A DNA stretch of 64,000 nucleotides from Enterobacter phage vB_ExiM_F4M1E. The stretch lies in sequence record OL744216.1. The stretch is one strand, 5' to 3'. Below, piece by piece: positions 16,618-31,036 of the stretch. Every line of letters starts with the position of its first letter. The first letter of the stretch is position 1. Below the pieces are notes generated by a model. It searched no databases, was not told the origin of the DNA, and was given only the letters and a program-made list of their open reading frames with translations. Both the position numbers and the translations under genes were made by a program.

Positions 16618-16722
16618 CGTTATCATTCTCACCTCTACCGGGTCGGAGTGAGAATCGTTCTCATTTGCAAATGCAACTAATAATCATTCGCATTCAGCTT
16701 GTTGAATGATAATCATTTTCAT
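16618..16722. promoter_or_regulatory. cluster of Fur-box-like AATCATTCTCAT-type sites (best: GAATGATAATCATTTTCAT approx 16704-16722)
   Basis: 14/16 match to Fur core AATGATAATCATTATC; near-palindrome GAGAATCGTTCTCAT. Confidence 0.4.
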
Positions 16723-20481: not shown

Positions 20482-20796
20482 ATGATAACTATTCTCACAA
20501 TGCTGGGACTTGCGGCGGCGGCGATTTACTGCGTCGCTACTTATAAAGCGTCTGTATGGCGAAAGGGTCAAAAAATGTACGGCTATTTTGAATATGAGTA
20601 CAAAGGGGAGAAGGGATCAAGCCGGGACTATGGCGCGATGTTAGAGATCGATATGGTTGGCGCGATGAACTACCGCCAGGAGTTGGGCGCGGTGATCACG
20701 TATGAAGTTTACAAGTCATCTGAGGATGAGATCGGGCAGATAATTGATCAACGTTACTATATGGAACAGCAACAAAACAAACGCCGGAGAAAATGA
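20482..20796 (+). CDS. membrane-anchored hypothetical protein (104 aa)
   Basis: N-terminal TM helix ITILTMLGLAAAAIYCVA. Confidence 0.45.
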   Translation: MITILTMLGLAAAAIYCVATYKASVWRKGQKMYGYFEYEYKGEKGSSRDYGAMLEIDMVGAMNYRQELGAVITYEVYKSSEDEIGQIIDQRYYMEQQQNKRRRK

Positions 20797-20933
20797 GAAT
20801 GATTCACACTAACGAGAACCGCCAAAAGGCACGACCCCGCGCCCGCCTGTCATATGCTGAAGCCGAGGACCGCCTACAGCGTGAAAAGAGCAACAAACAA
20901 CAGCGCCGCAAAACGCGCTATAACTGGGAGTAA
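20793..20933 (+). CDS. small basic protein starting MRMI (46 aa)
   Basis: ATGA overlap; ATGAGAATGATT start shared with ORFs 25938 and 27043. Confidence 0.3.
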   Translation: MRMIHTNENRQKARPRARLSYAEAEDRLQREKSNKQQRRKTRYNWE

Positions 20934-22500: not shown

Positions 22501-22503
22501 TTG

Positions 22504-22533
22504 TTGACACCGGGCACCGTCCCGGCTTATAAT
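22504..22533 (+). promoter_or_regulatory. promoter P12 TTGACA-N18-TATAAT
   Basis: near-identical to P10 and P13. Confidence 0.6.
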
Positions 22534-22751: not shown

Positions 22752-22754
22752 TTG

Positions 22755-22784
22755 TTGACGCCGGGCACCGCCCCGGCTTATAAT
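22755..22784 (+). promoter_or_regulatory. promoter P13 TTGACG-N18-TATAAT
   Basis: consensus. Confidence 0.6.
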
Positions 22785-25937: not shown

Positions 25938-26162
25938 ATGAGAATGATTATCAAAAACACTTTGGGCAAAACTGATTTTCTGCGCTCGCTGGAGATCGGC
26001 AAGCCGCAAGCCTGGTATTGTAAAAAGCTGGCGCATGATGAAATGAAAGATTTTACAGCCACGTTAACCCGCGTTAAAATCAGCATTACCCAAAAGAAAG
26101 CGCTTTTAGTGATTGAGGGGCAGATCCCGCAAACCGTGATCATTGTTGAGAGGACCGCATAA
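25938..26162 (+). CDS. hypothetical protein starting MRMI (74 aa)
   Basis: Fur-like ATGAGAATGATTATC spans start codon. Confidence 0.45.
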   Translation: MRMIIKNTLGKTDFLRSLEIGKPQAWYCKKLAHDEMKDFTATLTRVKISITQKKALLVIEGQIPQTVIIVERTA

Positions 26163-26898: not shown

Positions 26899-27307
26899 AT
26901 TAACAGTGTTCACAGGGGTTGACTTGTTCGCCCCTTTTTTGTTATCCTTTTGTCATGCGATGGCACCTGATGCAGGGGGAGACAAACACCGGACCTGCCC
27001 GCTATTCAGGGAGGCGGACCGGACCTGGGCCGCGCCGGGCAAATGAGAATGGTTATCATTCCCAACAAAATCAAATACATACTTTAAAACCGTTGTCAAA
27101 TTTATTTCTTACCCCTGTATAAATGTACATGCCCGCCAAACGCTCTAAAACGCGTTTTAAGCCGTTTTGCCCTTCCCCGGTATCCTACACCATAAAAATA
27201 TAGATCGCCCGAAATCGGACTTTCGCACTTTTTGTCCTTGCAAACGTGAAATTTTTATGTTAGGCCTGAAGGGCTGAAAGCCGGGTGTACGTTGACAAAA
27301 CTTTACA

Positions 27308-27336
27308 AAACTCCCTATTGACGCCCGGCCCGTTAT
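27308..27336 (+). promoter_or_regulatory. promoter P20 TTGACG-N17-GATAAT
   Basis: consensus; preceded by CTTTACAAAACT motif also found at 16.82 kb. Confidence 0.55.
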
Positions 27337-27398
27337 CCCTGATAATGTATCTCGTAGGGCGGCAATGATGCGACGGCCCACAAAGAGGGGACAGTAAA

Positions 27399-27638
27399 AT
27401 GAAAGAAATCATGACCTTGGTAAAATCCCGTATGTTACGTGGCGGATTCAACGCATACGCCGACGGCAATATCATTGCCACGGTCGCAAAAGTTACAAAA
27501 AATGATAATGATTCTCAGTTCGCCGGGCAGTATCGGATCTGTTTTACCCGTGGAAAGTTGCAAGGTAAAACGGCATACGCACCAGATTTTCAAGAGCTTA
27601 ATGATCGTATTTGCGCCGTTTTAGATTTTGCAAAATAA
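27399..27638 (+). CDS. hypothetical protein (79 aa)
   Basis: RBS AAGAGGGGA. Confidence 0.5.
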   Translation: MKEIMTLVKSRMLRGGFNAYADGNIIATVAKVTKNDNDSQFAGQYRICFTRGKLQGKTAYAPDFQELNDRICAVLDFAK

Positions 27639-27641
27639 ATG

Positions 27642-27670
27642 TTGACGCTGGGGCCGAAAGGCCCCATAAT
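27642..27670 (+). promoter_or_regulatory. promoter P21 TTGACG-N17-CATAAT (GGGGCC-GAAA-GGCCCC)
   Basis: consensus. Confidence 0.6.
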
Positions 27671-27715
27671 ACCCACTCAAGCAACAAACCACTAAAAACA
27701 CTGGAGACCGTAAAA

Positions 27716-28030
27716 ATGACCAAATCTAAATTTTTCGAAATGCTGGATCGCTACCTGTCAAGCCATAACGAGTGGGCCAAACTGGGCAACGGGTACGACT
27801 CATACAAGGCCGAACAGTTAAAACCTTATGTTTTCCATGAGGACCCGGCGAACCTGGAGAAGTGGAAAGCGAAAGATCCGTCCTATCCTTGGACCGCTCA
27901 CGCTTCAGGCTTTACCCTGGCTGATTGTTGGCATGTTGAGGTAATGCAACATAAAACCGCTGAAGCCGCCGAAAAACAGCACGTAATTTTCACCCGCTGG
28001 ATCGCAGACTATCAAAAGGCCCGCGCTTAA
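27716..28030 (+). CDS. hypothetical protein (104 aa)
   Basis: ATG 27716 with RBS GGAGAC. Confidence 0.5.
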   Translation: MTKSKFFEMLDRYLSSHNEWAKLGNGYDSYKAEQLKPYVFHEDPANLEKWKAKDPSYPWTAHASGFTLADCWHVEVMQHKTAEAAEKQHVIFTRWIADYQKARA

Positions 28031-28275
28031 TGTCCCGGCTTTTTAAAATCAATCTTCCATTGTGGGCCGCTTTAGCGGTCCTCATTGCCTTTTCTGGCGA
28101 TACGGTCAACAATTGGATTTTGTCCGCTGTACTTGGACCCGATCAAATGGTCACAACATTTTTAAACGCTTTCGGCGCTACACTGGCAACGGCCCGCCTT
28201 GCCTATCGTGGCAAATCAATAAACCGTTATGATCTGGCGCTATCACTGCCCGCCCTGGTTACCTGCCTAAACTGA
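28030..28275 (+). CDS. membrane protein (81 aa)
   Basis: two TM helices; TAATG overlap. Confidence 0.45.
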   Translation: MSRLFKINLPLWAALAVLIAFSGDTVNNWILSAVLGPDQMVTTFLNAFGATLATARLAYRGKSINRYDLALSLPALVTCLN

Positions 28276-28278
28276 AGA

Positions 28279-28310
28279 GGCCCGCCACCCCGGCGGGCTT
28301 TTCTTTTGTC
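28279..28310 (+). terminator. intrinsic terminator (GCCCGCC-ACC-CCGGCGGGCTTTTCTTTTG)
   Basis: GC stem plus T-run; ends the rightward block. Confidence 0.7.
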
Positions 28311-28599
28311 CCAAACGTGGCAAGCCTGGAGGCCCGGCCCGGTATCGGTCCGACTCCCCCAGTCAATCCCCTTATCACTTCCATTTGTGGAAATCAACAC
28401 TTAATTTTATTCACTTTAAAGCGCATAATTGAATAAACGAGGAGCTAACCCACTAACCAGGGTTGAGAGTAGCGGCCCGCATAGGGCCTTACAGCGCGTT
28501 TTAGCCCCTATTGACTTCTATCTGCAAACGTGTATCAAGCCGGATCGGTGAATCATCCATTTTCTTTACATAACTTGACACTATTTATTCATTTATCTG

Positions 28600-29225
28600 C
28601 ATAATGCTAGAATGATTCTCATTTACTATCAATAACTTAACTTTTTATTGACTTCTGACAAAACACGGTTTTACGTTCCCACGGATCAAGGGAGGGCGCG
28701 CCGTAGGCGCGACCAATAGAAAACAGGTAACGGATCACCCCCTTTGCTAACTCGCAAAGGATTGTGCTCACGTTCCCACGGTCAAGGGATGACCGCTATC
28801 ACCTGTTTTCTATTGGTCATTACGTAGTAATAAAACCGCTATTGTCAAGGGCTTTTTAGTGCCTACAGGCACAAATACGAATTATTCTCATCTGCATAAA
28901 GATTGGTTTTATCTGCATAAGTACGTAAACAGGCGGACCCGTACAGCGTAGCGGGGGCCGCATAGGCCCTACCGGGCAAGGGCCTTTATTGCTCACAAAA
29001 CAGCCGAAAGCGTAGTATTTGCCTGGCAAAATTCGCTCTTCGTGTCAAGCGAAAAATAATTTTTTTTTCTTTTTGCGTAAACGATAATGATTCTCATCCG
29101 AGAACCATTCTCAAAGGGCTAATGCGAATCATTCTCATTATCATGCCACAAGGTGAGTGAGACTCATTCTCATCCAGGCCAGTGCTGGCGGGCCTCTCCA
29201 CGTGTTGGGAATGATTATCATTCAC
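28600..29225. promoter_or_regulatory. cluster of at least 7 AATCATTCTCAT / ATGAGAATGATT (Fur-box-like) sites, including palindrome GAATGATTATCATTC (approx 29209-29223)
   Basis: approx sites 28609, 28879, 29083, 29100, 29126, 29159, 29208; resembles Fur consensus GATAATGATAATCATTATC. Confidence 0.45.
28700..28820. repeat. 16-bp perfect inverted repeat CCAATAGAAAACAGGT / ACCTGTTTTCTATTGG enclosing an internal hairpin (CCTTTGC-TAACTC-GCAAAGG)
   Basis: read directly from sequence; flanked by duplicated CGTTCCCACGG(A/T)TCAAGGGA. Confidence 0.55.
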
Positions 29226-29809
29226 GTCAGTGCGTATAAGGTGTATTATGTTAAATGGGGAAATGTTGGGGGAGGCACACCACGGCCCGGCTGTCAATAA
29301 GAGAAGTGTAAAGATGGGCAAGATGGTAGACATTTTGTGACTTTGATCGCGTAAAGTTAGGGGCTACCGATCTGGATTCAAGATTGAGAGGGAGAGGCTA
29401 AGTGATTGATTATTAAGGATATTTGGGAAAAATAACAGGTGCCCCTCCCCACCCCTGTTCGCCATGCCTGGCAGCTATATCCACACACTGAGATATTTTT
29501 CTGGTTTCTGGGCAAGAAGGGCCACCCCTGATCGCGTTCTAAAAATTTTGGCGGGAGGGTATTTTGACATAAAAAGAGGGCACAGCGCCTTACAGGTGAG
29601 CCTCTTCAGGCGTCCCTTGATATTTGGGCAATGTGGGAATACAGACGGGTACGTCTCTGTGGGAACAGGTATACCCGGCGGGAGAGGGCCTCCCGGACGG
29701 GGTATGGCGCTCGCAGAGTTATCAACAGGTCTGCCTCTTTAGGCAGTGGGTACAAGACAGGTTAGGCTCTTCAGGTCTACCAGTGTGGGAAACAAAATTG
29801 TGGAGGGAG

Positions 29810-29838
29810 ATACAAAAATACCGCCCGAAGGCGGTTTA
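29810..29838 (-). terminator. intrinsic terminator for leftward block (CCGCC-TTCG-GGCGG then T-run on minus strand)
   Basis: hairpin AAAATACCGCCCGAAGGCGGTTTAT read on the reverse strand. Confidence 0.55.
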
Positions 29839-30273
29839 TGGTTGGTATGGATCGTGGTAGTAATCCAGGTGGGACAGAGAGTTTCTGAGCACGGTCATAT
29901 GGATACCTGTCCATTCCGACTGTGTGGTGGGGTAATTGGCAACCCAATCCTGAAGACGTGCTTTCAGGACCGGATACTCAACACCGACCTTACCGTGTTT
30001 GGTTCGACACATCACAATACTGTGGCACAGTTGTCGATAGGCGGTCTCCCGCTCCAACCTGGCGACATACTCCTCGTTGCCTCTCTTCATACGGGCAATC
30101 TCCGCATTGAGTTTACGGCGCTCCCGGAGGTCAGCGCTCCACAGGTGAGCCACGGTAGGCGCAGTTTGGATGTAAGTGATGTGCCTCTTTGGCGTGGGTC
30201 CGTACATAGGTGTTCCTCTTTGGTATGTTTTGGAATATGTGGGGAGTATACGGGAGTTTTGGGAAGAGGTCAA
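29836..30273 (-). CDS. hypothetical protein (145 aa)
   Basis: last gene of leftward block. Confidence 0.45.
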   Translation of the reverse strand: MTSSQNSRILPTYSKTYQRGTPMYGPTPKRHITYIQTAPTVAHLWSADLRERRKLNAEIARMKRGNEEYVARLERETAYRQLCHSIVMCRTKHGKVGVEYPVLKARLQDWVANYPTTQSEWTGIHMTVLRNSLSHLDYYHDPYQP

Positions 30274-30289
30274 GGGCCTTTCGGCCCTT

Positions 30290-30625
30290 TTATACGATTT
30301 CGAAGGATTTTCGGAACAGGTTCATGTGGTCATTGAGGAATACCCATGTGGCACTGTCTCCCTGCTCATAATCGTCGTTGTACACAACCACGACATCATA
30401 TGGTGGGAATTTCTCAGCGTATGTGGTGGTCCGGAACCTGTAGACCTGCCCAACCTGGAATCCATGCCCGTTGTGCTCAAGGCACCGGGCAACCCCGAAC
30501 TCCGGCACCGGGAAGTAGAGTTGCCTCCACTCGGGCCTCCTGGGCCGGGCCTTCAGGTTCCACCGGGTAGCAAGTTTGCACGGGATTCGACTCATAGGTA
30601 GTCCTCTAAAATTTGGAGATACCAT
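30290..30625 (-). CDS. hypothetical protein (111 aa; alt start 30595)
   Basis: ORF in array. Confidence 0.45.
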   Translation of the reverse strand: MVSPNFRGLPMSRIPCKLATRWNLKARPRRPEWRQLYFPVPEFGVARCLEHNGHGFQVGQVYRFRTTTYAEKFPPYDVVVVYNDDYEQGDSATWVFLNDHMNLFRKSFEIV

Positions 30626-30849
30626 CCAGACAGGTCCGGGCGTAACGGGTTTATTGGGCCATCATCGTGGATAAGGTAGATGACACCATCTGTGCCCTCG
30701 AAGATACGTAGGCCACAGTCTACCGCCAGATAGCGGATCTCCTTTTGGGTGTACCCATATTGTGGATAGAGCACACCAGTTTTTGGGCAGACCTCCTTAC
30801 TCATTGGATTCGGCCCCCGCCTGATAAGCGTCCCACAAATCCTCGACAT
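30592..30849 (-). CDS. hypothetical protein (85 aa; alt start 30806)
   Basis: ORF in array. Confidence 0.4.
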   Translation of the reverse strand: MSRICGTLIRRGPNPMSKEVCPKTGVLYPQYGYTQKEIRYLAVDCGLRIFEGTDGVIYLIHDDGPINPLRPDLSGWYLQILEDYL

Positions 30850-31036
30850 ACTGCTTGTCCGGGTGGTCAGACGGCTCGTACCCGGTAAGGTCCTCGAAGA
30901 AGTCGTTGAACTTGTCTCGCAGGGTCCGGGGCGACCAATCAGGAACCCCGGTATAGTCTAAATCATAAGACATAAAAACTCCTATAGGTTTCGGAAACCG
31001 TTGATGACGTGATCTCCCAATGCCCCGCCAACCCAC
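30797..31036 (-). CDS. hypothetical protein (79 aa)
   Basis: ORF in array. Confidence 0.4.
   Translation of the reverse strand: MGWRGIGRSRHQRFPKPIGVFMSYDLDYTGVPDWSPRTLRDKFNDFFEDLTGYEPSDHPDKQYVEDLWDAYQAGAESNE

Follow-up and report, generated by a model that had tools for sequence, protein, structure and literature searches.

Short direct terminal repeats have been recorded in several relatives of the phage genus Certrevirus. For KPP-1 (Mydovirus), a 514-bp repeat at 116,316-116,829 was reported on the basis of twofold coverage and PhageTerm analysis, and its ends were classed as T7-type. KPP-X1, also a Mydovirus, was reported to be of the terminal-repeat type. The record of DP (Mydovirus) has a 514-bp repeat annotated at its end, the record of Hena1 (Henunavirus) has 519-bp direct terminal repeats annotated, and the record of Escherichia phage UPEC06 has an exact 462-bp repeat at both ends, from which a terminal repeat is deduced. 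Unlike these phages, the nearest studied relatives of the phage analyzed here were reported as circularly permuted. We analyzed a stretch of 64,000 nucleotides (the window) from Enterobacter phage vB_ExiM_F4M1E (OL744216.1) and focused on a zone of about 1.5 kb between its convergent gene blocks. This zone holds a predicted counterpart of the sister lineages' terminal repeats and, to the left of it, an inverted-repeat element with a conserved fold. No description of the zone or of the fold turned up in the literature.

The region 28000-30200 was 81-93% identical to Klebsiella phage KaOmega, to Cronobacter phages CR3, CR8, CR9, and PBES 02, and to Pectobacterium phages phiTE, CB7, P7_Pc, DU_PP_I, PcCB7V, and POP15. 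By this similarity, the window came from a Certrevirus phage (subfamily Vequintavirinae, rV5-like myoviruses). The last open reading frame (ORF) of the rightward block encodes 81 aa (28030..28275), and a strong terminator follows directly. The zone is limited by two terminators:

28276..28302, plus strand: intrinsic terminator with an 11-bp stem and a T run, which ends the rightward gene block and forms the left limit of the zone; it is kept in relatives.
29820..29835, unstranded: bidirectional terminator hairpin from the terminator scan, which ends the leftward gene block (at 29836) and forms the right limit of the zone.

Of the 19 ORFs in the zone that encode at least 30 aa, none remained open across 14 relatives. 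An earlier model-made note on this DNA, which used only the letters and a list of ORFs (the sequence-only reading), had seen no credible ORF between the two terminators, and this was borne out. Small protein genes were ruled out, as every ORF was broken in relatives, despite the small ORFs annotated in several GenBank records. The zone was 80-95% conserved in at least 12 relatives, and most 20-nt bins were 70-99% identical among 12 relatives. This level was comparable to that of coding sequence, despite the absence of a conserved ORF. The sequence-only reading had named conservation in relatives as one of the tests of its proposal, and such conservation was found across Certrevirus. The organization that it had noticed was real and far beyond chance. 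Its four independent repeat classes did not stand; the repeats sorted into three sub-regions, namely the folded element, the terminal-repeat equivalent, and a short-repeat array.

The central sub-region was placed by its boundaries:

29025..29468, unstranded: predicted direct-terminal-repeat equivalent of 444 bp, by boundary homology to the Hena1, KPP-1, DP, and UPEC06 repeats.
29050-29075: A/T-rich tract inside the terminal-repeat equivalent.
29083-29225: Fur-like palindrome cluster inside the terminal-repeat equivalent.
From 29232: invariant core GCGTATAAGGTGTATTATGTTAAAT inside the terminal-repeat equivalent.

In the window, the predicted left boundary of the repeat equivalent (29024/29025) reads TTTGCCT^GGCAAAAT, also given as TTTGCCT^GGCAAAATTCGCTCTTCGTGTCAAG, and the right boundary (29468/29469) reads CGCCATGCC^TGGCAGC, also given as CCCTGTTCGCCATGCC^TGGCAGC (the caret marks the boundary). 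The repeats of KPP-1, Hena1, DP, and UPEC06 all fall in the homologous non-coding zone, and they align with 29025-29468. The Hena1, KPP-1, and DP repeats start with ..TA^AACAC..CTTGTCAAG and end with ..TGTCCGTC^TA(G/A)CA. The Mydovirus and Henunavirus boundaries (left, ..GCTA^AACAC; right, ..GTCCGTC^TA(G/A)CA) were homologous to those of the window. The window boundaries were predicted from these two genera before UPEC06 was inspected, and UPEC06 then matched: its boundaries, TTTGCTA^GACAAAAC and CGCCGTGCC^TGGCAGC, lie at the same positions with nearly the same sequence. The repeats of the four phages, recorded or deposited independently, begin and end at homologous bases.

The motif TGCCTGGCA was present at both window boundaries (29020-29028 and 29465-29473) and occurred 3 times in the window, against 0.55 expected. 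A related short motif was also seen at both boundaries in the relatives, CTA(A/G)(A)CA in Mydovirus and Henunavirus and CCTGGCA or CTAGACA in the Certrevirus-like group. The motifs point to one recognition sequence that may serve both cuts.

The Mydovirus (KPP-1, DP, KPP-X1), Henunavirus (Hena1), and UPEC06 repeats share further features with the zone. They lie between convergent gene blocks, and they have homologous boundaries, Fur-like palindromes within their first 120 bp, and the invariant core GCGYATAASGTGTWTTATGTTAAAT, which was present in every genus examined and served as the anchor of the cross-genus alignment. In these phages, as in the window, an inverted-repeat fold lies to the left of the repeat (236-308 bp away; 206 bp in the window). 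A difference is the repeat length, 444 bp predicted in this phage and 462-519 bp in the others. The large terminase of CR3 was 69.2, 67.8, and 83.2% identical over its full length to those of DP, Henunavirus, and UPEC06, respectively. Packaging mode generally follows terminase clade, though this is not proof. The sequence-only reading had offered a packaging (pac/cos) or terminase site among several options. This option was the best supported, through the homology of the central 444 bp with direct terminal repeats in four phages from three other lineages and not through the features which that reading had listed.

The folded element, which ends 206 bp short of the left repeat boundary, was resolved into the following parts:

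28673..28818, unstranded: folded element, from structure prediction and covariation, single copy in the window.
28673-28693: first 20-mer copy, part of the folded element.
28698-28710: GC hairpin, part of the folded element.
28711-28728 with 28801-28818: long stem P1, the 18-bp inverted repeat.
28729-28737 with 28764-28774: P2.
28741-28747 with 28754-28760: P3 hairpin.
28770-28789: second 20-mer copy, part of the folded element.
28779-28784 with 28790-28795: P4 hairpin.

The arms of the inverted repeat, GACCAATAGAAAACAGGT and ACCTGTTTTCTATTGGTC, are 100% complementary and 72 nt apart, and in the predicted structure they close a multi-helix fold. The perfect inverted repeat noted earlier therefore exists, with a length of 18 bp instead of 16 bp and a left arm displaced by 3-5 nt from the coordinates given for it; the 7-bp hairpin noted inside it was also found (CCTTTGC with GCAAAGG, P3). 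The duplicated 20-mer has the general form ACGTTCCCACGG(A)TCAAGGGA, with ACGTTCCCACGGATCAAGGGA as copy 1 and ACGTTCCCACGG-TCAAGGGA as copy 2. It had been described as a 19-mer pair with an A/T difference that flanks the inverted repeat. The duplication was real, and its copies differ by a 1-nt indel rather than by an A/T exchange. With the second copy inside the inverted repeat, the two do not flank it. The 3' strand of a GC-rich hairpin at 28698-28714 overlaps the first 4-7 bases of the long stem's left arm, and this overlap could allow alternative pairing with the long stem. The homologous hairpin in Mydovirus and Henunavirus has tandem G.A/A.G mismatches (GCGAGC GTA GCGAGC).

The folding z-scores of the element were -7.3 and -8.2 as DNA (either strand) and -6.8 as RNA, with an RNA minimum free energy (MFE) of -68 kcal/mol. 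In a sliding RNAalifold analysis over the zone, the structure conservation index was 0.92-0.94 at the element and no higher than about 0.77 elsewhere (0.6-0.77 in windows overlapping or adjoining the element, 0.5-0.6 at 28375-28554). No other conserved structure was found in the zone outside 28675-28823. A covariance model built from the Certrevirus alignment found one copy in the window. The Rfam 15 scan of 27000-31000 gave no match to the element at E up to 1; its two sub-threshold matches were both on the terminator at 28244-28314. Known RNA families, tRNA, and tmRNA were ruled out, as Rfam gave no match and no tRNA or tmRNA was found.

The Certrevirus alignment contained 15 Certrevirus-like sequences, and the 14 distinct ones were used for pair counts. 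In these, 98.7% of the cells were paired, and 8 pairs (25 cells) had changed on both sides. The covariation score was reached by none of 500 shuffles and the pair count by 1 of 500. When the partners were slid by 1-3 columns as a control, pairing dropped to 38-46%. In a second clade, consisting of the sister genera, 17 pairs had changed on both sides, a count reached by none of 500 shuffles. The changes affected several helices. In the long stem of CR9, CA was changed to GG in the left arm and TG to CC in the right arm. In phiTE and CB7, each arm of the long stem had a 1-nt deletion. The inner hairpin TTTG/CAAA was replaced by GGCG/CGCC or GTTG/CAAC in relatives, and in the second helix (AACGGATCA with TG.TCACGTT), G-C was replaced by A-U. 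The folding and covariance analysis across related phages that the sequence-only reading had proposed thus gave strong covariation in both Certrevirus and the sister genera. The element is evolutionarily maintained through compensatory changes, and its pairing is preserved either through selection or because one arm is copied from its partner.

More distant relatives were located via the flanking 139-aa protein. The same architecture was present at the same place in Mydovirus (VIK251, KPP-1, DP, KNP2), Seunavirus (GEC_vB_MG, GAP31, PVP-SE1, LNA4), Henunavirus (Hena1), Salmonella phage SSBI34, and UPEC06. The stem was 16-22 bp long in each lineage and perfect in all but two phages, VIK251 with one G.T and LNA4 with a one-base bulge. 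Stem sequences differed by lineage (GACCAATAGAAAACAGGT, AGCGACACAATAACACGGGAG, GACACTATAACACGAGGG, AGCCACCTATAAACGCTGATAG, GACACTATAAAACGAG). The arms were 61-231 nt apart, the spacer had its own hairpins, and the fold lay 206-308 bp to the left of the repeat's left boundary in every case. The 20-mers changed in concert by lineage, with ACGTTCCCACGGATCAAGGGA in Certrevirus and CGTTCGCGTTATCGTGG in Mydovirus and Seunavirus; UPEC06 kept the fold and had no 20-mers. By this distribution, the fold is older than the genus Certrevirus, and it is a subfamily-wide element with no earlier description.

Scans of IMG/VR, metagenomes, and GTDB (185,579 genomes) gave isolated matches to a single arm or a 20-mer, one per contig, which is the chance level for a short pattern; a broad 15-base repeat pattern was too unspecific to use in the IMG/VR scan. 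Paired arms in inverted orientation, or both 20-mers together, were found only in contigs of this phage clade. Copies in host genomes were ruled out on this ground. A miniature inverted-repeat transposable element (MITE) or insertion element was ruled out by the single window copy, the constant syntenic site, the absence of flanking duplication, and the confinement of paired matches to the clade. Type I-E CRISPR repeats start with GTTCCC, as the 20-mer does, and a CRISPR-repeat mimic is unlikely, as the 97-nt spacing and the 9-nt loop do not fit.

We put the probability at about 0.6 that the zone is the concatemer-junction and packaging region of this Vequintavirinae phage, with the fold acting in end processing. 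In this reading, 29025-29468 would be the counterpart of the short direct terminal repeat present at both virion DNA ends in the sister lineages. The terminase would cut or nick at TTTGCCT^GG and ATGCC^TGG, and the repeat would be duplicated as genomes are excised from concatemers. By homology to the sister lineages, the repeat is probably duplicated physically at the ends of this phage as well, and these ends would be fixed. The folded element would lie just inside the right genome end. A single strand of it would fold into a long perfect stem that closes a branched loop, and this fold may be a snap-back hairpin that primes or marks terminal-repeat duplication. Alternatively, it may be a recognition structure for the packaging or replication machinery. 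The left flank carries promoter/operator-like modules, and the right flank a variable array of short same-strand repeats. Several hints suggest that the fold may act as DNA, namely the matched 1-nt deletions of phiTE and CB7, the CR9 double change, and the near-absence of wobble pairs. Perfect Watson-Crick stems and matched indels would fit DNA-level copying of the arms better than independent compensatory mutation in RNA.

T7 offers the nearest mechanistic precedent for the fold, by analogy. A hairpin intermediate that contains the terminal repeat is reported in T7 repeat duplication, according to a secondary citation. A hairpin-forming site is associated with the terminal repeat in T7, as with its predicted equivalent in the zone. 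In both, short same-strand repeat arrays flank the terminal repeat or its predicted equivalent. CCTAAAG heptamer arrays lie beside the T7 repeat, and their reverse complement CTTTAGG resembles the CTCTTYAGG of the zone. The two phages, their terminases, and their sequences are nevertheless unrelated, and the fold is a branched structure of 150-320 nt with a 16-22-bp stem across lineages, whereas the T7 hairpin is a simple snap-back.

Some observations weigh against the concatemer-junction reading. CB7 was reported to be circularly permuted and terminally redundant, with no high-coverage region and no BAL-31-sensitive bands. phiTE, a generalized transducer, was judged circularly permuted by restriction analysis. 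The UPEC06 record is labelled 'partial genome', and its repeat could be an assembly overlap, though its ends match the conserved boundaries. With a spacer of 72-231 nt, a cruciform is unlikely to extrude from duplex DNA, and the fold would require a single-stranded intermediate or a transcript. Finally, the Certrevirus covariance model did not detect the Mydovirus, Seunavirus, and Henunavirus versions of the fold, whose homology between genera is thus based on synteny, architecture, and short anchors. Either the CB7 and phiTE assays failed to show a repeat of 450 bp in a genome of 145 kb, or Certrevirus has turned to headful packaging that begins in the zone.

Headful packaging as in CB7 and phiTE is the alternative that survived best, and we consider it unlikely. 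The zone would then be a pac region that starts the packaging series and descends from an ancestral terminal-repeat region, with the repeats and the fold as terminase binding or assembly sites. The high conservation of the zone agrees with this, as do the circular permutation reported for both phages and transduction by phiTE. The 20-mers, with two direct copies and a short inverted match, also resemble the multiple small-terminase sites of pac and cosB. Such multiple sites are found in lambda cosB and in SPP1 and P1 pac. Like the zone, the R sites of lambda cosB and the pac of P1 and SPP1 have several 17-20-nt copies within about 250 bp, close to the cut site. Protein-site models of this kind leave the free covariation of the stems unexplained. 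In addition, the large terminase is 68-83% identical to those of terminal-repeat phages, both boundaries are almost base-for-base those of UPEC06, which a pac-only site would not need, and the older assays were probably insensitive to a 450-bp repeat in a 145-kb genome.

A structured noncoding RNA (ncRNA) gene, which the sequence-only reading had listed as an option, is less probable still. The inverted-repeat element would be a stable RNA, regulatory, anti-defence, or packaging-RNA-like, transcribed rightward from the promoter-like modules at 28575-28656, and its position at the chromosome end would be incidental or similar to that of the phi29 packaging RNA (pRNA). The strong covariation in several nested helices, with inner hairpins drifting freely in sequence, fits this view, and so do the RNA MFE and z-score, the presence of a few G.U pairs in the plus sense, and the promoter-like TTGAC elements with A/T-rich sequence just upstream in several genera. 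However, wobbles were rare: apart from one invariant pair, they accounted for about 0.3-1% of cells. C.A mismatches, each a G.U on the opposite strand, were equally frequent. The minus strand folded at least as well as the plus strand. No plus-strand sigma-70 promoter and no terminator bracketing the element were called in the scan, no conserved terminator follows it, and Rfam gave no match. For the matched 1-nt deletions in both arms, copying at the DNA level is the easier explanation. The structured element of that option stood, and it may act as RNA or as DNA: its pairs are almost all Watson-Crick, its wobbles show no strand bias, and its two strands fold equally well. The phi29 pRNA is a structured element of about 150 nt whose gene lies near the genome end and whose architecture is kept while its sequence diverges among relatives. 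The folded element shares its size class, its genome-end position (predicted), and its conserved architecture. It differs in belonging to a myovirus with a conventional terminase and in having almost no G.U pairs, and it resembles the pRNA neither in sequence nor in the Rfam scan.

The least probable alternative is that the zone is or contains a replication origin; the sequence-only reading had listed a second origin or a recombination hotspot as further possibilities. Such an origin would join an A/T-rich tract for unwinding with iteron-like repeats and a folded single-strand initiation signal, and transcription across the G-rich right half might prime it. The A/T-rich tract at 29050-29075 beside clustered palindromes, the same-strand short repeats, and a local GC skew that changes sign near 29150, at the cumulative-skew minimum, agree with it. 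However, both gene orientation and motif content confound the skew, neither an initiator gene nor a DnaA-box array was identified, and the mapped terminal repeats offer another, direct explanation of the same sequences. Large-scale GC skew was discarded as an origin signal, as it follows gene orientation and is uninformative. The secondary origins of T7 adjoin its ends, and an origin could be compatible with the concatemer-junction reading; an RNA gene and an origin alike may be compatible with a packaging role.

If the zone is a concatemer junction, fixed ends and a repeat of about 444 bp may be present in Certrevirus phages (phiTE, CB7, CR3, and relatives), which the literature lists as headful packagers with circularly permuted DNA. 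At a minimum, Certrevirus keeps the complete terminal-repeat apparatus of its sister genera. This would bear on the choice of record start in genome annotation, on genome engineering, and on how the transduction risk posed by biocontrol phages is judged. A tentative and rather doubtful extension is that the element represents a new class of terminus-associated folded nucleic acid in all Vequintavirinae, a branched hairpin of single-stranded DNA or of a transcript that is mechanically required for terminal-repeat duplication or packaging start. The arms would then stay perfectly complementary because one is copied from the other in each cycle. A hairpin step has long been proposed for T7-type end formation, and the element would be the first example of it to be defined by sequence and supported by covariation; alternatively, it would be a myovirus packaging RNA similar to the pRNA. 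Given the position, the perfect stems, and the matched indels of the element, the way in which short terminal repeats are duplicated becomes directly testable in a tractable phage group.

The features on both sides of the folded element and to the right of the terminal-repeat equivalent are as follows:

28509..28624, plus strand: promoter-/operator-like module, a block about 90% conserved; the module is kept in the diverged outgroup SSBI34.
28509-28519: TATTGACTTCT in the first module, repeated at 28646-28656.
28575-28580: TTGACA in the first module.
28592-28604: TTTATCTGCATAA in the first module.
28608-28624: Fur-box-like palindrome TAGAATGATTCTCATTT in the first module.
28879..28920, plus strand: second promoter-/operator-like module, with a Fur-like box GAATTATTCTCAT overlapping CTCATCTGCATAA (28887-28899), then TTTATCTGCATAA (28908-28920).
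29469..29819, plus strand: short same-strand repeat array right of the boundary, with a G-rich plus strand (GC skew +0.17 to +0.41).
29592, 29725, and 29757, plus strand: ACAGGTnnGCCTCTTYAGG, three copies (19-mer family).
29632, 29658, and 29784, plus strand: TGTGGGAA, three copies, all within 29632-29791.
29619: GATATTTGGG, with a further copy at 29418 inside the terminal-repeat equivalent.
29509 and 29625: TGGGCAAnnnGG, with a third copy at 29315 inside the terminal-repeat equivalent.

The promoter activity of the modules is putative, and the sigma-70 scan made no call at the promoter-like sites of 28509..28624. The motif TTATCTGCATAA, noted earlier as occurring three times, was exact at 28593 and 28909 and had one mismatch at 28888, with no other copy in the window. 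The copies of TTATCTGCATAA and TATTGACTTCT belong to the two modules and in each adjoin or overlap a Fur-box-like palindrome GAGAATnATTCTC. Such palindromes were found at about 12 places between 16.6 and 29.2 kb (16648-16718, 20793-20809, 25938-25954, 27047-27059, 27502-27518, and 28608-29225), with 21 matches against 2.4 expected. Their cluster fills the first 200 bp of the terminal-repeat equivalent, as it does in KPP-1 and Hena1. Three palindromes overlap start codons of small ORFs as ATGAGAATG(A/G)TT (20792, 25938, 27044). DU_PP_I, PcCB7V, phiTE, and CB7 have inserts with a near-consensus Fur box GATAATGAGAATCATTATC at the second module.

In the right-hand array, which also holds GGGCAA motifs, copy numbers varied among relatives (0-3 and 0-4). 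In Hena1 and KPP-1, the terminal repeat is likewise followed by short same-strand repeats of other sequence (GGCAGAACA, GATATTTTCGG). Of the 5 copies of CTCTTYAGG in the window (0.65 expected), 3 lie in the zone. Three small GCCTCTTYAGGC hairpins had been noted here; the three copies exist as members of the 19-mer family. The outgroup SSBI34 (GAGACTCTTTAGGC) does not keep the 4-bp hairpin, which shows conservation of the sequence motif and not of the hairpin. GTGGGAA, which had been listed together with TGTGGAA as a class of six or more copies, was indeed repeated, with 5 exact copies in the zone and 16 in the window (about 0.4 expected per 1.5 kb). It is not an independent class because two minus-strand copies are part of the duplicated 20-mer.

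Some records break at the folded element. The PBES 02 record (KT353109) ends with ...GACCAATAGAAAACAGG and starts with CCTGTTTTCTATTGGTC, so that the break falls exactly at both arms and the record lacks the loop. Two further breaks, at the ends of IMG/VR contigs from other genera, lie within the loop of the contig's own version of the element. The spacer orientation was identical in all 25 assembled copies. An assembly artefact could account for the breaks, as could a drop of coverage at the hairpin or a population with both spacer orientations.

Other differences among relatives were seen along the zone. Short blocks at 28542-28560, 29260-29300, and 29355-29400 had two or three sharply different alleles in a patchwork among relatives, which suggests recombination between Certrevirus lineages. 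About 300 bp was extra between the terminator and the zone in KaOmega, DU_PP_I, PcCB7V, and SS-2025, compared with 28302-28334 of the window. A 66-aa ORF is annotated in this segment in KaOmega (gp180), DU_PP_I, and PcCB7V, and the window does not have it; a comparable small ORF is annotated at the same place in POP15, CB7, and phiTE (phiTE_096, 55 aa). In phiTE (phiTE_097) and CB7 (CB7_143), the right sub-zone contains an inserted, free-standing gene for an HNH endonuclease, which lies between the terminal-repeat equivalent and the leftward genes. A link to the pseudo-ToxI escape locus of phiTE, published at 106,714-106,772, was rejected: the phiTE counterpart of the zone lies far from it, at about 48.9-51.1 kb, no ToxI-like match within 3 mismatches was found in that homologous region, and the zone has no tandem repeats, 36-nt ToxI-like ones included.

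Elsewhere in the window, 22503-22533 and 22754-22784 are near-identical consensus promoters, GTTGAC-N-TATAAT, with a G+C-rich palindromic spacer (CCGGGCACCG.CCCGG). These two promoters fit the early promoter consensus published for CB7.

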